IMG/VR virus record: IMGVR_UViG_2693429623_000007
DNA: 7,648 bases
Direction: 5' to 3' (one strand)
Source: a virus
Lineage: Duplodnaviria; Heunggongvirae; Uroviricota; Caudoviricetes
Positions within the stretch are counted from its first letter, which is position 1; each line of letters begins with the position of its first letter. Under the pieces are notes generated by a model that was not told where the DNA came from, ran no database searches, and saw only the letters and a list, made by a program, of their open reading frames with translations. Positions 1 to 6,823 of the stretch are shown here, one piece after another. Position numbers and translations under genes: made by a program.

Positions 1-155
1 ACCTGGACAATATCCTGAAAGCACCACTGGATGCGCTGACGCATGCCGGACTACTCATAGACGACGAGCAGTTTGATGAAATCAATATTGTGCGCGGTCA
101 GCTCGTTCCTGGGGGGCGGCTGGGCGTGAAGATTTACAAAATTGAGAGTGAGTGA
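1..155 (+). CDS. rusA: Holliday junction resolvase RusA, 3' end (5' partial; starts upstream of window)
   Basis: Frame from nt 3 translates to LDNILKAPLDALTHAGLLIDDEQFDEINIVRGQLVPGGRLGVKIYKIESE*, stop TGA 153-155. Matches the C-terminal region of E. coli RusA as I recall it (DLDNL..DAL..AG...DD...GGRL); recall-based, not searched. Confidence 0.8.
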   Translation, partial: LDNILKAPLDALTHAGLLIDDEQFDEINIVRGQLVPGGRLGVKIYKIESE

Positions 156-706
156 TCGTAAATATGATATATCCGGAAATTACAGGCAAAAGCGGCGAGC
201 ATTTACGTCTAAAAACGCTGGAAGCCGTCTGGATCCAGGGGAAATTACGGATGTGGGGGCGTTGGTCGTATATAGGTGGTGGCAAACCAGGAAATATGTT
301 CAATCAGTTGCTGGCATCCAAAAAACTGACAAAAACCGCGGTCAATGAAGCCCTGCGTAGAATCAGGGAGTCAGGGATTGATAAACCAGAGCTGGAAGCA
401 TTCTTGCGAGAGATGATCGCTGGCAGACAGAAGAGCTGGTTGTCTCACTGTACTGATGCAGAGGCGTTACGCATTGATGGGGTGATAAGTAAAGCGCTTG
501 CACGTTATCCTGGATTGATTGATATCCTGCGGCAAAGGTACGAAGGGCGGGGGATGAGTAAACGCAAAATGGCTGAATTGTTGAATGAGGTGCACCCGGA
601 ATGGTGTTTTAGTACATGCGAAAAGCGAATTGCTAATTGGTTGGCTGTTGCTGAATATGCGCTATACATCCCTATGCGAGAATCGTTTGCTCAAAAAATG
701 TCTTGA
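152..706 (+). CDS. Putative late-gene antiterminator Q (non-lambda Q family), assigned mainly by synteny
   Basis: 184-aa ORF directly after rusA (GTG 152 overlaps the rusA stop as GTGA; alternative ATG at 164), followed by a promoter-like element and an intrinsic terminator. Contains a W-G-x-W stretch (LRMWGRWS) reminiscent of DLP12-type Q proteins. Family call is uncertain. Confidence 0.55.
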   Translation: MIVNMIYPEITGKSGEHLRLKTLEAVWIQGKLRMWGRWSYIGGGKPGNMFNQLLASKKLTKTAVNEALRRIRESGIDKPELEAFLREMIAGRQKSWLSHCTDAEALRIDGVISKALARYPGLIDILRQRYEGRGMSKRKMAELLNEVHPEWCFSTCEKRIANWLAVAEYALYIPMRESFAQKMS

Positions 707-731
707 TTTTTTACGCATAAACTGTTTCAAT
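703..731 (+). promoter_or_regulatory. Candidate late promoter (pR'-like) downstream of the Q-like gene
   Basis: TTGATT (703-708), 17-nt spacer, TTCAAT (726-731) preceded by TG at 723-724 (extended -10 like). Lies about 60 nt upstream of an intrinsic terminator, the arrangement expected for pR'/tR'. Confidence 0.4.
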
Positions 732-790
732 CCAGCTACGCTTCGCAAAGCTATACCGCGAGGCGAATAGCAGACATGGACACCTGAAAG

Positions 791-814
791 AACCCGCTTT
801 ATGCGGGTTTTTTT
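791..814 (+). terminator. Rho-independent terminator (tR'-like)
   Basis: Stem cccgc (793-797), loop tttat, stem gcggg (803-807), then seven T's (808-814). Confidence 0.7.
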
Positions 815-937
815 GTGCCCGAAAAGCGGTACAGGACGTTAAATGCGCTGGTGGTTGCGAATGCCGGTCTTTCAGCTTGCTGGCTTTTTCGACAAGAGGT
901 ATTGGTATGTCACGTTAACCGGAAAAGGGAAAAAGGC

Positions 938-1135
938 ATGCTAAAACAGCAGGATATGACCGAAACCGCCAGAGTGGTGTTTAATGAATTAAGCGTCACC
1001 GAACCGGCGACCGTCGGGGAAATTGCGCAGAATACTTACCTTTCACGCGAACGCTGCCAGTTAATCCTGACCCAGCTTGTTATGGCGGGTCTGGCAGATT
1101 ATCAGTTCGGTTGTTACAGACGCCTTCCGCAGTGA
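938..1135 (+). CDS. Small hypothetical protein (65 aa), possible helix-turn-helix DNA-binding protein; allele 1
   Basis: ATG 938 preceded by purine-rich aaaagggaaaaagg. The longer track ORF from 815 would start inside the terminator region, so the internal ATG is preferred. Product MLKQQDMTETARVVFNELSVTEPATVGEIAQNTYLSRERCQLILTQLVMAGLADYQFGCYRRLPQ; the stretch ATVGEIAQNTYLSRERCQLILTQL looks like an HTH. A near-identical allele is at 1826-2023. Confidence 0.6.
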   Translation: MLKQQDMTETARVVFNELSVTEPATVGEIAQNTYLSRERCQLILTQLVMAGLADYQFGCYRRLPQ

Positions 1136-1144
1136 AGGCTTTTT
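1122..1144 (+). terminator. Rho-independent terminator overlapping the stop codon of the 65-aa gene
   Basis: Stem gccttc (1122-1127), loop cgcagt, stem gaaggc (1134-1139), then five T's (1140-1144). The same structure recurs at about 2009-2033 and 2201-2223. Confidence 0.5.
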
Positions 1145-1184
1145 AATTTGTGGTAATGGGCGGCTGGTGGGTGTTAGCGGCNTC

Positions 1185-1601
1185 CAGTATCCGGATGGTA
1201 AGCCGCCGGTATGGGCAAAGTGTACGAAAGGTGTGTATCCGTCTTACTGGGAAGAATGGAAAAAAGTCAGGGAGGTGGTAAAAGTTGCCTGTCCGGAGTG
1301 TGGCGGAAAGGGTGAGGTTTCCACCGCCTGTAAGGATTGCCGTGGGCGTGGTGTCGCCATTCATCGTGAAGAGTCGGTAAAACGTGGTATGCCTGTTATC
1401 AGAGACTGCCAGCGTTGTGGTGGTCGTGGCTATGAAAGACTACCATCAACGGAGGCATTTAATGCTATATGCGAGGTGACAAACCAGATAACACGCGCGT
1501 CATGGGAAAAAACAGTTAAGAAATTTTATGATGCGCTGGTGACCCGGTTTGATATTGAAGAAGCATGGGCTGAGCGGCAGTTAAAAAAGGTAACTAGGTA
1601 A
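1185..1601 (+). CDS. Lambda-type antiterminator Q, C-terminal fragment (5' truncated at the junction n at 1182)
   Basis: Translation contains CPECGGKGEVSTACKDCRGRGVA...CQRCGGRGYERLPS...YDALV...KVTR*, matching the zinc-binding C-terminal region of lambda Q as recalled (CRDCHGTGRA...CGRCKGVGYSRMP...YDALV...AVTR). The first 35 codons of track ORF 1077-1601 lie in a repeat that is intergenic in the other copies, so the true N-terminus is missing. Confidence 0.75.
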   Translation, partial: QYPDGKPPVWAKCTKGVYPSYWEEWKKVREVVKVACPECGGKGEVSTACKDCRGRGVAIHREESVKRGMPVIRDCQRCGGRGYERLPSTEAFNAICEVTNQITRASWEKTVKKFYDALVTRFDIEEAWAERQLKKVTR

Positions 1602-1606
1602 CAAGG

Positions 1607-1634
1607 TTGATTTTTCCGGAATCTGTGGTAAATT
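1607..1634 (+). promoter_or_regulatory. Lambda-like late promoter pR'
   Basis: TTGATT (1607-1612), 16-nt spacer, TAAATT (1629-1634). The downstream text ggtaaattcgtcataacgatggg closely resembles the lambda pR' initial transcribed region (GGTAAATTTGACTCAACGATGGG, from memory). Confidence 0.65.
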
Positions 1635-1681
1635 CGTCATAACGATGGGCGTTTTATGCCTGACGTTAGAAGAGTTTCTAC

Positions 1682-1706
1682 AACCCGCCGCCGAGCGGGT
1701 TTTTTA
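1682..1706 (+). terminator. Rho-independent terminator tR' (lambda-like)
   Basis: Stem cccgc (1684-1688), loop cgccga, stem gcggg (1695-1699), then six T's (1700-1705); about 45 nt after the predicted pR' start. Confidence 0.7.
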
Positions 1707-1735
1707 TGACTGAAATCGCGTCAGTACAGTAAACG

Positions 1736-2112
1736 CGCTGGTGGCGGTGAATACCTGTCTTTCAGCTTGCTGGCTTTTTCGACAAGAGTTATTGGTGTGT
1801 CACGTTAACCGGAAAAGGAAAAGACATGCTAAAACAGCAGGATATGACAGAAACCGCCAGAGTGGTGTTTAATGAATTAAGCGTCACCGAACCGGCGACC
1901 GTCGGGGAAATTGCGCAGAATACTTACCTTTCACGCGAACGCTGCCAGTTAATACTGACCCAGCTGGTTATGGCGGGTCTGGCAGACTATCAGTTCGGTT
2001 GTTACAGACGCCTTCCGCAGTGAAGGCTTTTTTATTTGTGGTAAATGGGCGGCTGGTGGGTGTTAGGGGCACCCACCAGCCATCTGCTCATGCGTTGGGT
2101 TCACAAGCAAAC
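1736..2112 (+). repeat. Copy 2 of the duplicated unit containing the 65-aa gene
   Basis: Diverged allele of 848-1181; runs into the N gap at 2113. Confidence 0.8.
1826..2023 (+). CDS. Small hypothetical protein (65 aa), HTH-like; allele 2
   Basis: The track gives the same 65-aa protein as 938-1135; the DNA differs at scattered positions, implying synonymous changes. Same terminator at its stop. Confidence 0.6.
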   Translation: MLKQQDMTETARVVFNELSVTEPATVGEIAQNTYLSRERCQLILTQLVMAGLADYQFGCYRRLPQ

Positions 2113-2179
2113 NNNNNNNNNNNNNNNNNNNNNNNNNNNNNNNNNNNNNNNNNNNNNNNNNNNNNNNNNNNNNNNNNNN
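2113..2179. other. Assembly gap (67 N)
   Basis: Run of n; flanks are two copies of the same repeat unit. Confidence 1.
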
Positions 2180-2302
2180 ATCAGTTCGGTTGTTACAGAC
2201 GCCTTCCGCAGTGAAGGCTTTTTAATTTGTGGTAATGGGCGGCTGGTGGGTGTTAGCGGCACCTGCCAGCCATCTGCTCATGCGTTGGGGTCACAAGCAA
2301 AC
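2180..2302 (+). repeat. Copy 3 (partial) of the duplicated unit: last 11 codons of the 65-aa gene plus downstream
   Basis: atcagttcggttgttacagacgccttccgcagtgaaggc... matches 1102-1181 and 1989-2112. Confidence 0.8.
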
Positions 2303-2364
2303 CTCAGGCCCATCTGCTTTGCGCAAAAGCGGTATGAGCCTATCAGAGAAGTGCTTATTGATCT

Positions 2365-3070
2365 ATGGCCAATACTGTAAAAATATCCAGTTGTGAGTTA
2401 ATCAACGCTGATTGCCTGGAATTTATCCAGACCTTACCGGAAAATTCTGTCGATCTGATAGTCACAGACCCGCCATACTTTAAAGTGAAGCCCGAGGGCT
2501 GGGATAACCAGTGGGAGGGCGACGATGATTACCTGAAATGGCTGGACCAGTGTCTGGCGCAGTTCTGGCGGGTGCTGAAACCTGCCGGAAGTCTTTACCT
2601 GTTCTGTGGTCATCGCCTGGCATCTGATATCGAAATCATGATGCGTGAACGCTTCAGTGTGCTGAACCATATTATCTGGGCGAAGCCGTCCGGACGCTGG
2701 AACGGATGCAACAAGGAAAGCCTGCGGGCGTATTTCCCCGCCACAGAGCGCATTCTGTTCGCGGAACATTATCAGGGGCCGTATCGTCCGAAAGATGCCG
2801 GGTATGCGGCGAAGGGCAGTGCACTGAAACAGCATGTGATGGCCCCGCTGATTTCTTACTTTCGTGATGCGCGAGCTGCCCTGGGGATAACGGCAAAACA
2901 GATTGCAGATGCCACAGGAAAGAAAAACATGGTGTCGCACTGGTTCAGTGCCGGTCAGTGGCAGTTGCCGAATGAAAGCGATTATCTGAAATTACAGGCG
3001 CTGTTTGCCCGGGTGGCAGAAGAGAAGCATCGGCGTGGTGAACTGGAAAAGCTCCACCACCAGCTGGTGG
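2365..3070 (+). CDS. DNA N6-adenine methyltransferase, beta class, N-terminal 235 codons (3' end interrupted by N gap)
   Basis: MANTVKISSCELINADCLEFIQTLPENSVDLIVTDPPYF...; catalytic motif IV DPPY at 2467-2478. Track ORF 2365-3102 runs through the gap. The gene continues in the segment 3694-4037. Confidence 0.8.
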
Positions 3071-3081
3071 NNNNNNNNNNN
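3071..3081. other. Assembly gap (11 N)
   Basis: Run of n inside the methyltransferase reading frame. Confidence 1.
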
Positions 3082-3150
3082 TGGCACAGGGGCGCGAGCT
3101 AAAACAGCACGTCATGGCCCCGCTGATTTCTTACTTTCGTGATGCGCGTA
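3082..3150 (+). pseudogene. Isolated 69-bp internal fragment of a divergent methyltransferase allele, between two N runs
   Basis: Matches 2811-2878 with several substitutions in the first 30 bp; the segment ...catggccccgctgatttcttactttcgtgatgcgcg is shared. Confidence 0.6.
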
Positions 3151-3179
3151 NNNNNNNNNNNNNNNNNNNNNNNNNNNNN
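3151..3179. other. Assembly gap (29 N)
   Basis: Run of n. Confidence 1.
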
Positions 3180-4037
3180 GCGCAGTTCTGGCGGGTGCTG
3201 AAACCTGCCGGAAGTCTTTACCTGTTCTGTGGTCATCGCCTGGCATCTGATATCGAAATCATGATGCGTGAACGCTTCAGTGTGCTGAACCATATTATCT
3301 GGGCGAAGCCGTCCGGACGCTGGAACGGATGCAACAAGGAAAGCCTGCGGGCGTATTTCCCCGCCACAGAGCGCATTCTGTTCGCGGAACATTATCAGGG
3401 GCCGTATCGTCCGAAAGATGCCGGGTATGCGGCGAAGGGCAGTGCACTGAAACAGCATGTGATGGCCCCGCTGATTTCTTACTTTCGTGATGCGCGAGCT
3501 GCCCTGGGGATAACGGCAAAACAGATTGCAGATGCCACAGGAAAGAAAAACATGGTGTCGCACTGGTTCAGTGCCGGTCAGTGGCAGTTGCCGAATGAAA
3601 GCGATTATCTGAAATTACAGGCGCTGTTTGCCCGGGTGGCAGAAGAGAAGCATCGGCGTGGTGAACTGGAAAAGCTCCACCACCAGCTGGTGGATACGTA
3701 TACCTCACTGAACCGGCAGTATGCGGAGCTGCTGAGTGAATATAAACATCTGCGGCGGTATTTTGGCGTGACGGTGCAGGTGCCGTATACCGATGTGTGG
3801 ACGCATAAACCGGTGCAGTTCTATCCCGGGAAACATCCGTGCGAAAAACCGGCAGAAATGCTGCAGCAGATAATCAACGCGAGCAGTCGTCCGGGAGACC
3901 TGGTTGCAGATTTTTTTATGGGTTCAGGTTCAACGGTAAAAGCGGCGATGGCACTGGGGCGTTGTGCGATTGGTGTTGAGCTGGAGACCGGACGTTTTGA
4001 ACAGACAGTCAGGGAAGTTCAGGATTTAATCGTTTGA
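3180..4037 (+). CDS. DNA N6-adenine methyltransferase, beta class, codon approx. 65 to stop (5' truncated by N gap)
   Basis: 3180-3693 appears identical to 2557-3070 (514 bp). The C-terminal part carries the AdoMet-binding motif I, FFMGSGST. Motif IV before motif I is the beta-class order. Stop TGA 4035-4037. Reconstructed full gene is about 349 aa. Confidence 0.8.
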   Translation, partial: AQFWRVLKPAGSLYLFCGHRLASDIEIMMRERFSVLNHIIWAKPSGRWNGCNKESLRAYFPATERILFAEHYQGPYRPKDAGYAAKGSALKQHVMAPLISYFRDARAALGITAKQIADATGKKNMVSHWFSAGQWQLPNESDYLKLQALFARVAEEKHRRGELEKLHHQLVDTYTSLNRQYAELLSEYKHLRRYFGVTVQVPYTDVWTHKPVQFYPGKHPCEKPAEMLQQIINASSRPGDLVADFFMGSGSTVKAAMALGRCAIGVELETGRFEQTVREVQDLIV

Positions 4038-4098
4038 AACGGATGAGATTGCAGAATTAATTACGCACCATTATTATTCTGCTCCCGGCCCTTTAGCN

Positions 4099-4395
4099 CT
4101 GCGGCGGTATTTTGGCGTGACGGTGCAGGTGCCGTATACCGATGTGTGGACGCATAAACCGGTGCAGTTCTATCCCGGGAAACATCCGTGCGAAAAACCG
4201 GCAGAAATGCTGCAGCAGATAATCAGCGCTAGCAGTCGTCCGGGTGACCTGATTGCAGATTTTTTCATGGGGTTGGGTTCGACAGTGAAAGCGGCACTGG
4301 CGCTCGGGCGTCGTGCAATTGGCGTTGAGCTGGAGACTGAACGTTTTGAGCAGACGGTTCGGGAAGTACAGGATTTAGTCAGCCAGAACGGATGA
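4099..4395 (+). CDS. Methyltransferase C-terminal fragment, second allele (5' truncated at the junction n at 4098)
   Basis: In-frame from 4099. Product ...VTVQVPYTDVWTHKPVQFYPGKHPCEKPAEMLQQIISASSRPGDLIADFFMGLGSTVKAALALGRRAIGVELETERFEQTVREVQDLVSQNG* differs from the 3751-4037 allele by scattered substitutions and a 5-aa longer tail. Confidence 0.7.
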   Translation: MRRYFGVTVQVPYTDVWTHKPVQFYPGKHPCEKPAEMLQQIISASSRPGDLIADFFMGLGSTVKAALALGRRAIGVELETERFEQTVREVQDLVSQNG

Positions 4396-4435
4396 TATTG
4401 AAGAATTAATTACGCGTCGTTATTATGCGGCTCCC

Positions 4436-4511
4436 GGCCCTTTAGCTCAGTGGTGAGAGCGAGCGACTCATAATCGCCAGGTCGCTGGTTCAAATCCAGC
4501 AAGGGCCACCA
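4436..4511 (+). tRNA. tRNA-Ile2/Met, anticodon CAU (ileX/ileZ-like)
   Basis: Hand-folded cloverleaf: acceptor GGCCCTT/AAGGGCC, D arm GCTC-AGTGGTGA-GAGC, anticodon loop CTCATAA, T arm GCTGG-TTCAAAT-CCAGC, discriminator A, encoded CCA. Resembles E. coli ileX as recalled. Confidence 0.85.
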
Positions 4512-4518
4512 TCACATA

Positions 4519-4595
4519 CCGCCATTAACTCATCAGGATAGAGCGCCAGCCTTCGAAGCTGGTTGCGCGGGGTTCGAGTCCTCGATGGCGGTCCA
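4519..4595 (+). tRNA. tRNA-Arg, anticodon UCG
   Basis: Acceptor CCGCCAT/ATGGCGG (7 bp), anticodon stem CCAGC/GCTGG with loop CTTCGAA, T loop TTCGAGT, encoded CCA. The D stem has one A-C mismatch. Confidence 0.75.
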
Positions 4596-4608
4596 TTATC
4601 TGCATCAT

Positions 4609-4685
4609 GCGTTGTTAGCTCAGCCGGACAGAGCAATTGCCTTCTAAGCAATCGGTCACTGGTTCGAATCCAGTACAACGCGCCA
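4609..4685 (+). tRNA. tRNA-Arg, anticodon UCU
   Basis: Acceptor GCGTTGT/ACAACGC, D arm GCTC-AGCCGGACA-GAGC, anticodon stem ATTGC/GCAAT with loop CTTCTAA, T arm ACTGG-TTCGAAT-CCAGT, encoded CCA. Confidence 0.85.
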
Positions 4686-4698
4686 CGCTTATTTTTCC

Positions 4699-4723
4699 AG
4701 GCTCGCTTCGGCGGGCCTTTTTC
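4699..4723 (+). terminator. Rho-independent terminator after the tRNA cluster
   Basis: Stem aggctcgc (4699-4706), loop ttcg, stem gcgggcct (4711-4718, one G-U pair), then T-run to 4722. Confidence 0.55.
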
Positions 4724-4860
4724 ATATCCGCGCCACGCCCGGCGCACATCAAAAAACCACAGAGCCTTTCAGGGGTGAGCTTACGGGATGGTCAGTGTGA
4801 CTTTCTCTGTGGGCTGGTCACCCCCGGGCGCAGGCTCACCCACTAAAAGGAAAAGTCACG

Positions 4861-5286
4861 ATGTTTGGTATTTTCAAAAAGAAAACCCGCAAGGCCATTA
4901 CCGAGGTGAAGAAGATGGAGAACCGTGACGCAGTGGAGGCGACCGTCTGGGGCGCGTACTCCATTGCATACGCTGACGGCACCTGTGACGCGAAAGAAAT
5001 CGCGGTACTGGAAAAAACCATTGCAGCACTTCCTGTCTTTGCGCCGTTCTCCGGTGAGATTGCACAAATGAGTGCAAATATCCGCGCCCGTTATGAAGCG
5101 TCGCCGCGTTCTGCCAATGCCGAAGCTCTTCGTCAGCTGGCTGATGTTGCCGGTACTGATGATGCAGTTAATGTGCTGTGCCTGTGTCTGGATATCGCTG
5201 ACCAGGACGGTATCGCTCAGGAAGAAGAAGCGCAACTGAAGAAAATTGCGCAGGCGCTGCAGTTGCCGCTGGAGCAGTACCTGTGA
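4861..5286 (+). CDS. TerB-like (tellurite-resistance TerB family) domain protein, 141 aa
   Basis: ATG 4861 with aaaaggaaaag upstream. Two internal half-repeats of the form A-x-A-DG...E...L..IA.AL (AYADGTCDAKEIAVLEKTIAAL and DIADQDGIAQEEEAQLKKIAQAL), the arrangement I recall for TerB. Family call is from memory. Confidence 0.55.
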   Translation: MFGIFKKKTRKAITEVKKMENRDAVEATVWGAYSIAYADGTCDAKEIAVLEKTIAALPVFAPFSGEIAQMSANIRARYEASPRSANAEALRQLADVAGTDDAVNVLCLCLDIADQDGIAQEEEAQLKKIAQALQLPLEQYL

Positions 5287-5435
5287 AAAGTGCGCGCCTT
5301 GTGCTGGCTGTCATCCTGTTGTTTCTGGTAGTGGTGGTTGATTTCACCGGACGACTGATGTCGGTGCTGGCAGATGGTGTGCTGGTGGCGATGGCGCTGG
5401 TCGTGCTCCGGCCTTTACTGCGTAAATCTGAATAA
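5283..5435 (+). CDS. Small hydrophobic protein (50 aa), putative membrane peptide
   Basis: GTG 5283 overlaps the upstream stop as GTGA; ggag lies 10 nt upstream. Product VKSARLVLAVILLFLVVVVDFTGRLMSVLADGVLVAMALVVLRPLLRKSE*. Below the 60-aa cutoff of the ORF track. Speculative. Confidence 0.35.
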   Translation: MKSARLVLAVILLFLVVVVDFTGRLMSVLADGVLVAMALVVLRPLLRKSE

Positions 5436-5444
5436 CATCACACA

Positions 5445-5481
5445 AAAGGCATCTGCGGATGCCTTTGACGGGGTGTTTTTT
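5445..5481 (+). terminator. Perfect 9-bp hairpin followed by a T-run; putative terminator or attenuator before the lysis genes
   Basis: aaaggcatc (5445-5453), loop tgcg, gatgccttt (5458-5466), then gacggggtg and six T's (5476-5481). Confidence 0.4.
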
Positions 5482-5520
5482 ACGGGTCGCTGGTGGCCCT
5501 TTTTTATTTTCAGGAGGAAG

Positions 5521-5914
5521 TATGTCTGAACCCTTATCCGGTTCCGGCACGGCTGCGGCGCTGGGGGGCGCGACGGTATTCGGGCTGTTTACCGGGATGG
5601 ATTTCGGGATTGTGTTTGGCGCGTTCGCCGGGGCGTTATTTGTGGCAACGATGCCGCAGTCACTTTCAGTCTGGCGCGTGGTGGCGCATTTTCTGGTGTC
5701 GTTTATTGTCGGCGTGCTGGGAGCGCGTGTGCTGTCAGCCTGGATTGCATCAAAAACAGGGTATGACGGTACATCAGCAGATGCGCTTTGCGCGGTGCTG
5801 GTCTCGGTGGTGTCGGTGAAGATTCTCTCGTTCATCCACCAGCAGGATATTGCATCGCTGGTGTCCGGTGTGTTCTCCCGCCTGCGGGGTGGAGGAGGCG
5901 GCAATGTTAAGTAA
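5521..5914 (+). CDS. Putative holin-like membrane protein (131 aa)
   Basis: ATG 5521 with strong SD caggaggaag. The track start at 5459 falls inside the upstream hairpin and is rejected. Gly/Ala-rich hydrophobic segments suggest about 3 TM helices by eye. It is the first gene of a cluster ending in an M15 endolysin. Atypical for a holin: the C-terminus is GGGGGNVK rather than strongly charged. Confidence 0.5.
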
Positions 5915-6179
5915 CCTTCCCGGATTGCTGAATGTGGCGTTATGCACGGTTATCGTGCTGACGCTCTTTTTTTATCGTCGCCGTGATTCCAGACATAAAC
6001 CGCTGGTGTCATGGCTGGCCTGGCTGCTGATGCTGCTGTATGCCTTTGCGCCCCTCAGCTATCTGTGTGGTCGCCCGTTAGCAACGGGCTGGCTGGAAGT
6101 GTTTTTTAACCTGCTGTTCTGCGTGCTGGTGATACGCGCACGCGGGAACGTCACAAAAATCTTTCCATTGTTGAGGTGA
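5904..6179 (+). CDS. Lysis-associated membrane protein (92 aa; second holin or antiholin candidate)
   Basis: ATG 5904 preceded by ggaggagg; overlaps the upstream stop by 11 nt. Product MLSNLPGLLNVALCTVIVLTLFFYRRRDSRHKPLVSWLAWLLMLLYAFAPLSYLCGRPLATGWLEVFFNLLFCVLVIRARGNVTKIFPLLR*, about 3 hydrophobic segments by eye. Stop TGA 6177-6179. Confidence 0.5.
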   Translation: MLSNLPGLLNVALCTVIVLTLFFYRRRDSRHKPLVSWLAWLLMLLYAFAPLSYLCGRPLATGWLEVFFNLLFCVLVIRARGNVTKIFPLLR

Positions 6180-6181
6180 AT

Positions 6182-6559
6182 ATGCCGGGTAAATTCAGAT
6201 TCAGCCGTCGCAGTGAAAAAAATCTGGAGGGTGTCAAACCACAGCTGGTTGCTGTAGTTCGCCGTGCGCTGGAGCTGACGGAGGTTGATTTCGGTATTAC
6301 GGAAGGCCTGCGCAGTAAGTATCGCCAGAAACAGCTGGTTGCGGAAGGGAAAAGCCAGACCATGAACAGCCGCCACCTGACCGGTGATGCGGTGGATGTT
6401 GTGGCCTACATTGGCAGTCAGGTGTCATGGGAGTGGCCTCTGTACGAGAAAATCGCACAGGCATTTAAGCAGGCTGCCGCAGAGCTGGGGATCGCTATCG
6501 AATGGGGCGGGGACTGGAAAACGCTGAAAGACGGACCTCACTTTCAGCTGAAGCGATAA
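6182..6559 (+). CDS. Endolysin, peptidase M15 family (L-alanyl-D-glutamate peptidase / VanY-like)
   Basis: ATG 6182 after gaggtg (the track uses GTG 6176). Putative zinc ligands in SRHLTGDAVD (H-x6-D) and DGPHFQL, as in T5-type endolysins (recalled). Directly follows two membrane-protein genes. Confidence 0.8.
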   Translation: MPGKFRFSRRSEKNLEGVKPQLVAVVRRALELTEVDFGITEGLRSKYRQKQLVAEGKSQTMNSRHLTGDAVDVVAYIGSQVSWEWPLYEKIAQAFKQAAAELGIAIEWGGDWKTLKDGPHFQLKR

Positions 6560-6566
6560 GTAAAAC

Positions 6567-6599
6567 AAAACCCCGGCTGGGGGAACAGTCCGGGGTTTT
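6567..6599 (+). terminator. Rho-independent terminator after the endolysin (3' side abuts N gap)
   Basis: aaaaccccgg ... ccggggtttt, a GC-rich stem with a 13-nt loop and four T's before the N run. Confidence 0.5.
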
Positions 6600-6823
6600 N
6601 NNNNNNNNNNNNNNNNNNNNNNNNNNNNNNNNNNNNNNNNNNNNNNNNNNNNNNNNNNNNNNNNNNNNNNNNNNNNNNNNNNNNNNNNNNNNNNNNNNNN
6701 NNNNNNNNNNNNNNNNNNNNNNNNNNNNNNNNNNNNNNNNNNNNNNNNNNNNNNNNNNNNNNNNNNNNNNNNNNNNNNNNNNNNNNNNNNNNNNNNNNNN
6801 NNNNNNNNNNNNNNNNNNNNNNN
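6600..6823. other. Assembly gap (224 N)
   Basis: Run of n between the endolysin terminator and the lipoprotein gene. Confidence 1.

Follow-up and report, generated by a model that had tools for sequence, protein, structure and literature searches.

The DUF3927 gene tciB and its TerB-family neighbour tciA in a mobile phage cassette

The question raised by this locus is whether a short hydrophobic frame, which overlaps the stop codon of a TerB-family gene, is a gene, and what its product may do beside the TerB-family protein. The window, by which we mean the whole stretch of 7,648 nucleotides that was analysed, comes from a tailed virus (Caudoviricetes; IMG/VR record IMGVR_UViG_2693429623_000007), and the features around the frame are listed in Table 1. 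An earlier note, made from the letters of the window, had described a frame of 50 amino acids with a GTG start on the plus strand, and the frame was found as described; its translation is MKSARLVLAVILLFLVVVVDFTGRLMSVLADGVLVAMALVVLRPLLRKSE. The GTGA overlap with the upstream stop was likewise present, as the upstream gene ends in TAC CTG TGA, with the GTG at 5283-5285 and the TGA at 5284-5286. The peptide was found to contain the basic tail that had been pointed out (RPLLRKSE). The description of a single long hydrophobic stretch was half right: the stretch LVLAVILLFLVVVV (residues 6-19) was found, but a second hydrophobic segment is present at residues 25-42. Between the two segments lies DFTGR, a polar motif that is invariant, and the most conserved residues of the family fall in the second segment. 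The GRAVY value of the peptide was 1.5, and none of the 86 frames tabulated for the window (40 codons or longer) came higher than 1.24.

Table 1. Positions in the window of tciA, tciB and the features that surround them.
Feature	Position	Strand	Description and basis
Terminator-like hairpin with T run, after the tRNA cluster	4699..4718	+	Left edge of the cassette
tciA 5' leader	4728..4860	+	Conserved, about 135 nt; alignment of lambdoid loci; structure tentative
tciA	4861..5286	+	TerB family, 141 aa, without hydrophobic segment; Pfam TerB, PHROG 632, AF2
GGAG, Shine-Dalgarno-like, for tciB	5271..5274	+	Inside tciA near its 3' end; 8 nt separate it from the GTG; read from the sequence
tciB (DUF3927)	5283..5435	+	GTG start; Pfam, PHROG, RefSeq WP_000833653.1, AF2
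Conserved hairpin AAAGGCATC-TGCG-GATGCCTTT, directly after tciB	5445..5466	+	Right edge of the cassette; six lambdoid contexts aligned
Second terminator-like hairpin with T run	5484..5509	+	Between tciB and the first holin gene; not conserved between contexts
First holin gene	5522..5914

The peptide was found to belong to a curated protein family. It matched Pfam DUF3927 (PF13064) with 54.2 bits at a gathering cut-off of 25, with residues 4-48 on positions 4-48 of the 53-position model, and PHROG 1470 with an E value of 3.3e-23 over residues 2-50. The label of PHROG 1470 reads 'TciB-like inhibition of cell division or resistance to colicin'. Members of DUF3927 are about 45-65 amino acids long and share the core (V/I)DF(T/S)..(M/L)S...D(G)... 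followed by P44 close to the C-terminus. The 50-amino-acid protein of the window has this length and contains D20, F21, T22, M26, S27, D31, G32 and P44, all of which are invariant in an alignment of 33 proteins (alignment A4). Position 43, just before P44, is R in the window and W in most members, while D20, S27 and D31 are retained even by distant members. The identical 50-amino-acid protein was found on at least 1000 public contigs under the name 'MULTISPECIES: DUF3927 family protein [Enterobacteriaceae]', and 33 complete E. coli genomes were found to carry the same 901-bp stretch with an identity of at least 99%. Among the best-matching records listed, the gene order in RefSeq was 'tellurite resistance TerB family protein | DUF3927 family protein | putative holin'. 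The frame had been called unlisted, which holds for the ORF track of the earlier reader but not for RefSeq, which carries the gene. The gene is thus already known as tciB, being covered by a Pfam DUF family, a PHROG family, the RefSeq annotation and a gene name of phage P1. NCBIfam was found to be without a model for TciB, and a search of the literature for DUF3927 brought up no more than a passing mention. The names tciA, tciB and tciC come from phage P1, where they were given 'by homology' twenty years ago; no experimental report on tciAB was found in the literature searched, and the name 'tci' rests on that homology.

The reading frame of tciB was found to be kept under selection. Of the 177 sequences compared (176 related loci and the window, some contigs having been fetched twice), 172 had a frame that stays open for 46-54 codons, and the exceptions were a rearrangement breakpoint (L018), one truncated copy and similar cases. 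The earlier note had held that frame-disrupting indels in close homologues would speak against the gene, and these were not observed. It had also proposed synonymous-rich substitution as a sign of coding, and this was found: over 65 unique coding sequences, with the substitutions on a minimum spanning tree added up, pN/pS was 0.39 in the tciB frame compared with 1.07 and 1.60 in the other plus-strand frames, and the median pairwise dN/dS was 0.33. The antisense frame that shares wobble positions with tciB also had a low pN/pS (0.43), which is expected because of the shared wobble positions and is no evidence for an antisense gene. In alignment A4, whose proteins range down to 48% identity, 17 residues were invariant, namely R5, L12, L13, L15, V16, D20, F21, T22, M26, S27, D31, G32, V33, L34, V35, P44 and L45. 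A profile search against 1.84 billion representatives returned 133 clusters at 50% identity, nearly all of 45-65 amino acids. A word-indexed search returned 775 TciB clusters at 90% identity, and the named ones among the 120 matches listed were all enterobacterial. When a back-translated alignment of TciB was scanned against genome contigs, 4 loci were found, a low number because the back-translated pattern is narrow.

These results bear on the simplest alternative, namely that the frame is open by chance or is an untranslated remnant lying in the 3' region of tciA or in the terminator region. A frame of only 50 codons with a GTG start would suit such a reading, and so would the low value of the antisense frame, but the match lies well over the curated Pfam cut-off, the 17 residues do not vary, the clusters are nearly uniform in length, and both the frame and the overlap of start and stop are kept in unrelated phage types. 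The chance-frame reading is effectively refuted, and we regard it as exceedingly improbable. Membership in a curated family, a retained frame and a pN/pS specific to that frame uphold the earlier view of a real gene, and tciB is a genuine protein-coding gene under selection. We are nearly certain that the frame is tciB and that it forms a two-gene module with the TerB-family gene.

The upstream gene tciA encodes the TerB-family partner. TciA matched Pfam TerB with 33 bits (cut-off 24.4) as a partial match to model positions 60-106 of 118, matched PHROG 632 with an E value of 1e-63, and was 85% identical to TciA of phage P1. Two acidic motifs of the TerB type were conserved in TciA, D39-G40..E46 and D114..G117..E122-E123. 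In an alignment of 25 sequences (A5), D39, E46, D114 and G117 were invariant and G40 and E122 nearly so, while E123 was invariant only in a 5-sequence alignment (A2). TciA and TciB were modelled separately by AF2. The model of TciA (pLDDT 88.5) was all-helical, with six helices, was of the soluble type and had a disordered, very basic N-terminus. Its best fold match in the PDB was 2h5n, which we take to be an entry under the TerB family in Pfam, with a probability of 1.00, a TM score of 0.51-0.59 and an E value of about 0.01. A sequence search of the PDB gave no meaningful match for TciA or TciB, and the PADLOC defence-system protein models gave no match for either protein at E values up to 1. 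The pN/pS of tciA was 0.068 against 0.39 for tciB; tciB thus evolves much faster and tciA is far more constrained.

The two genes were found to lie in a compact cassette. When lambdoid loci were compared, conservation began abruptly at about position 4728 and ended after the hairpin at the right edge, and these limits therefore mark a mobile unit of about 750 bp that consists of the leader, tciA, tciB and the 3' hairpin. The tciAB cassette is a compact, horizontally mobile phage unit. To the left of the first terminator-like hairpin the sequence varied across loci, while the leader to its right was conserved. In the hairpin at the right edge the sequence of the stem differed between loci and the pairing was preserved across the six lambdoid contexts. 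Upstream of the cassette, the window contains a gene that the reference annotation assigns to the DUF1133 family, a DNA methylase gene and three tRNA genes; on its other side the cassette is directly followed by two genes of holin families (Phage_holin_8 and Phage_holin_3_7) and an M15 endolysin gene. We infer that the DUF1133-family gene is a Q-type antiterminator. In other prophages tciAB was found directly behind Q and its terminators, as the first pair of genes, and expression of tciAB with the late lytic transcript would be the natural reading of this arrangement.

The leader of tciA was found to contain several possible helices. A short hairpin is formed by GCGCC (4730-4734) and GGCGC (4741-4745), a long stem by CCUUU..GGUGAGC (4765-4780) with GCUCACC..AAAGG (4834-4850), and an extra helix by CCACAGAG (4757-4764) with CUCUGUGG (4805-4812). 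Over 14 distinct sequences 99% of the alignment cells were paired, with compensatory change at 2 pairs only, and the MFE z-score of the leader was -2.1. Tentatively, the long stem would occlude the Shine-Dalgarno sequence of tciA. No Rfam family was found for the leader or for the 3' hairpin, and no antisense sRNA family was detected by Rfam in the region. A promoter scan found no sigma-70-like promoter between the upstream terminator and tciA, and the idea of a 'moron with its own promoter' was therefore set aside.

The suggestion that the TerB-like protein and the peptide form a two-gene module was borne out by other phages, among which the pair of a TerB gene and a DUF3927 gene is kept with unrelated surrounding genes. 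In lambdoid prophages of three Q families and with differing lysis cassettes, a TerB gene of 141-142 amino acids was followed by a DUF3927 gene of 50-54 amino acids. The pair was also found in phage P1 (as tciA-tciB-tciC) and in the P1-like or phage-plasmid elements Cyrano, pJN2-26 and D6, in the virulent N4-like Schitoviridae FSL SP-076 and Pollock, in the jumbo phages ChrisDB and pSal-SNUABM-04 (Erwinia and Salmonella), and in Pseudomonas phage nickie and Pantoea phage LIET2. The coupled architecture proposed in the earlier note recurred too. The GTGA overlap of 4 nt was repeated in about 160 lambdoid loci, and the junction was tight in the other phages examined: in P1-like phages and some others stop and start overlap as TGATG or TAATG, and elsewhere the two genes overlap by 8 nt or lie 0-3 nt apart. 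In the Pseudomonas phages AF (where the ORF is unannotated) and Zuri, the TerB gene was followed by an unrelated small single-pass membrane protein, an arrangement that fits a general design of 'TerB plus small membrane partner'. The phage TerB genes of PMBT3, Cygsa01 and Vibrio BUCT194 had no small membrane ORF downstream, and the pairing is therefore very frequent and not obligatory for the wider TerB family.

Some loci departed from the intact pair. In about 22 of the fetched loci an intact tciB was found behind a tciA that was truncated at its 5' end, frameshifted or interrupted by a nonsense codon, or that had no assignable start codon; in these loci either TciB is able to act alone or the prophages are decaying. 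The only natural fusion of TerB with DUF3927 that was seen (P0273) was rejected, as it results from the insertion of one T in the assembly of a single read set and is for this reason no evidence for contact between the two proteins. The longer 'fusions' P0310, P0317, P0338 and P0352 were frameshifted or chimeric gene calls.

The closest named relative is the tci operon of phage P1 (P1_gp074-076), in which a TerB-family tciA is followed by a hydrophobic tciB of about 50 amino acids with overlapping stop and start. The TciB proteins of P1 and of the window share the motif VDFT..S..DG..(W)P, and in both phages the pair adjoins phage tRNA genes. The two loci differ in several respects. P1 has a third gene, tciC (35 amino acids), found only in P1-type loci, whereas in the window tciB is followed by a hairpin and holin genes; tciB starts with GTG and a 4-nt overlap in the window and with ATG and a 1-nt overlap (TGATG) in P1; and the leader of 135 nt is conserved in the lambdoid version but absent from the P1-like, phage-plasmid and N4-like contexts. 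In a CRISPRi screen tciA, tciB and tciC of P1 were reported as non-essential (PMC10695390), and the tci operon has been lost from nearly half of one P1-like subgroup (PMC9603915). The pair is therefore accessory. Its retention as a pair across lambdoid, P1-like, N4-like, jumbo and Pseudomonas phages implies a selected function.

The membrane topology of TciB can be read in two ways. The charges from K and R are +2 at the N-terminus, the loop DFTGR has a net charge of 0, and the C-terminus has +3/-1; by the positive-inside rule, a helical hairpin with the N-terminus and the C-terminus both inside would be the most probable topology. TciB would then be a helical hairpin of the inner membrane that turns tightly at DFTG(R/K) and has its two termini in the cytoplasm, and the D, G and R of DFTGR are turn-promoting residues that favour the hairpin. 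The AF2 model, made on an alignment of 33 sequences, consists of one continuous helix of residues 2-47 with a mean pLDDT of 89.5, and a hydrophobic helix of 46 residues exceeds the length of a single membrane pass. If the helix is continuous, D20, R/K24, S27 and D31, of which all but position 24 are invariant, lie on one face (i, i+4, i+7, i+11). As a prediction, the continuous helix speaks against the hairpin, and we retain both the single-helix and the hairpin readings.

As an overall explanation we favour, as the probable one, that tciB is a gene of a mobile cassette and encodes a membrane partner of TciA that serves in lytic growth. Weighing against it are the single helix of the AF2 model, the loci with an intact tciB behind a defective tciA, the phage TerB genes that lack a small membrane ORF, and the much faster evolution of tciB. 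Judging from the overlap, tciB is most likely translationally coupled to tciA. Ribosomes that end the translation of tciA would re-initiate at the GTG of tciB, helped by the GTGA overlap and the GGAG upstream of it, and this re-initiation would link the production of TciB to that of TciA. TciB would then anchor the soluble TciA and hold its TerB-type domain, which is predicted to bind metal or other ions, at the cytoplasmic face of the membrane. By analogy with known systems, we consider the chances about even that TciB is such a membrane partner of TciA. A pair of TciA and TciB would parallel TerB with TerC as well as the membrane-anchored TerB-like domain of DjlA. DjlA is a membrane-anchored co-chaperone in which the anchor is fused in the same polypeptide as the TerB-like central domain, and a J domain follows. 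It resembles the proposed arrangement of TciA in placing a TerB-type domain on the cytoplasmic side of the inner membrane; TciA in contrast has no J domain, and any anchor of it would be a separate protein. In sequence, TciA gave no more than a weak echo of the NCBIfam model of DjlA (E value of 0.017, far below the cut-off). In the ter cluster, TerB is reported to interact with TerC, an integral membrane protein (PMC11003894). The likeness lies in the pairing of a TerB-domain protein with an integral membrane protein, whereas TerC itself is a large multi-pass protein unrelated to the 50-amino-acid TciB.

In the main rival of this explanation, TciB is a small membrane effector that works on its own and is merely co-transcribed with the TerB gene, and TciA regulates or neutralises it rather than being anchored by it. 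We consider this rather unlikely, and hold the same of its particular forms, a holin-like or antiholin-like factor in the timing of lysis or a peptide that causes depolarisation in the manner of type I toxins. In size, in having one or two hydrophobic helices and in its charged tail, TciB is like the small holins, the pinholins and type I toxin peptides such as Hok and TisB. Its two hydrophobic segments with a charged C-terminal tail agree with a small holin, and lambdoid tciB lies beside the lysis cassette, directly upstream of the holin genes. However, TciB had no match to a holin family in Pfam or PHROG, DUF3927 being its sole Pfam match. The pairs of the P1-like, N4-like, jumbo and Pseudomonas phages were found far from lysis genes, with tciB still directly after the TerB gene, and the absence of a detected antisense RNA also sets tciB apart from the type I toxins; unlike holins and these toxins, tciB is tied to TerB genes and not to endolysin genes. 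The loci with an intact tciB behind a broken tciA can be argued both ways. They suit an effector that acts by itself, but if TciB were toxic without TciA such loci should be rare, although the loss of coupling may silence tciB in them.

A further alternative is that tciAB is a 'moron' of lysogenic conversion that confers resistance to tellurite or colicin or inhibits cell division. TciA does belong to the TerB family, the ter cluster has been associated with resistance to tellurite and colicins and with inhibition of phages, and terminator-like hairpins flank the cassette as they do many morons. Against this, the ter-cluster partners terZ, terA, terC, terD and terE were not among the neighbours in the window, where methylase, tRNA, holin and endolysin genes were found instead, and the leader had no promoter-like site. 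The place behind terminators in a Q-dependent late operon implies little expression in the lysogen, and the same pair was found in virulent phages, which never form lysogens. The authors of the PMBT3 study likewise doubt that a lone phage terB gives resistance (PMC8421299). We consider conversion of the lysogen by tciAB improbable, and distinctly more so than an autonomous effector. From the occurrence in virulent phages, the place behind terminators in the late operon and the lack of other ter genes we judge that tellurite or colicin resistance is unlikely and that a role in the membrane of the infected cell during lytic growth is more likely.

Within the favoured explanation, the pair of TciA and TciB would act in lytic growth by conditioning or guarding the inner membrane, and premature depolarisation, the timing of lysis, or incoming phages or colicins are possible targets. 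We offer such a protective role of tciAB at the membrane in the lytic phase as a tentative suggestion.

The gene call itself adds nothing, as public annotation already has tciB. The value of the finding is that it points to the breadth of the pairing of TerB with a small membrane protein, and a second, residual value lies in the conserved leader that is predicted to pair with the ribosome-binding site of tciA. More speculatively, and with a good deal of doubt, TciA and TciB could represent a widespread phage device, a 'membrane-tethered TerB', that serves lytic growth in temperate and virulent phages alike and whose translation in the lambdoid version would be gated by the leader. A device of this kind might sense or buffer stress of the inner membrane or of ions, and it could prevent premature triggering of holins or exclude superinfecting phages or colicins. 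A role for the pair would concern hundreds of E. coli genomes, and it might inform the understanding of TerB domains generally.

The window was found to be a patchwork when compared with the finished reference genome L001 (window 1-4100 and 6600-6823). It contained six runs of N, and both the small gene following Q and the DNA methylase gene occurred again as partial copies with 90-92% identity; the assembly looks like several similar lambdoid prophages scaffolded together. The finding on tciAB is unaffected because window 4100-6599, the region carrying the pair, was a single contiguous block 98% identical to L001. Two further open frames were found in the window. The zinc-finger ORF of 174 residues was present mostly within segment 1183-1694, which had no counterpart in the prophage L001, and was similar to the Antiterm/DnaJ_CXXCXGXG Q-like proteins of locus L175. 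The frame antisense to tciB probably represents a shadow ORF of the coding strand, which is G+C-rich.

Features located in the window and in Pseudomonas phage AF (window coordinates unless stated)
Feature	Position	Strand	Remarks
Runs of N (six)	1182; 2113-2179; 3071-3081; 3151-3179; 4098; 6600-6823		
174-aa ORF	1077-1601		three CxxCxGxG-type zinc-finger motifs: CPECGGKG, CKDCRGRG, CQRCGGRG
tRNA genes	4436-4685		anticodons CAT, TCG (Arg), TCT (Arg)
Conserved leader, about 135 nt	4728-4860		directly upstream of tciA
Additional leader helix, predicted	4757-4764 / 4805-4812		CCACAGAG / CUCUGUGG
Long leader stem, predicted	4765-4780 / 4834-4850		CCUUU..GGUGAGC / GCUCACC..AAAGG; spans the tciA Shine-Dalgarno
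186-aa open frame	5344-5904	minus	antisense to tciB 3' end and first holin gene
73-aa ORF, unannotated	L181 (phage AF) 1132-1353		GTG overlaps the TerB stop

The leader of the TerB-family gene tciA was kept in lambdoid contexts despite unrelated DNA upstream of it, and among the compared loci it was absent from the P1-like, phage-plasmid and N4-like contexts. In the predicted leader structure the paired cells amounted to 99% and covariation was weak; the helix formed by CCACAGAG and CUCUGUGG contained one compensatory change, from A-U to G-C. No family was matched in an Rfam search with the leader. The leader may be a translational control element.

In a number of IMG/VR prophage contigs (L087-L100, L125, L150, L153, L157-L161, and L074), tciB was intact at 50 codons although tciA was damaged. 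The damaged tciA was of three kinds: 5'-deleted (residues 73-141), with a frameshift near residue 50, or with a nonsense mutation. The truncated form of TciA has its counterpart in PHROG 9865 (74 aa). The tciA-tciB-holin stretch was also present in Actinobacillus phage vB_Apl-pPE4 (PP818812.1, 17433-18336), whose deposited host is Actinobacillus pleuropneumoniae. Its nucleotide identity to E. coli prophages was 94%, which is unexpected in a Pasteurellaceae phage; the record may represent an E. coli-derived prophage or a mislabelled host.

Phage tRNA genes were found to adjoin tciAB in very different phages, namely the window, P1, ChrisDB, nickie, D6, and pSal-SNUABM-04. The CAT-anticodon tRNA of the window was assigned to Met by ARAGORN whereas RefSeq assigned it to Ile. 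P1 contained tRNAAsn and tRNAThr upstream and tRNAIle downstream of the pair, and the jumbo phage tRNAs, tRNATrp and tRNACys, were both upstream. This proximity may reflect merely common "accessory" regions.

The unannotated ORF of Pseudomonas phage AF was homologous to gp47 of phage Zuri, annotated as "membrane protein" (L184 1143-1346). This type of protein has a single N-terminal transmembrane segment, followed by the motif YGxQTERETxYAxFVGCMV. The AF/Zuri ORF is a second kind of small membrane protein immediately behind phage TerB, unrelated to TciB.
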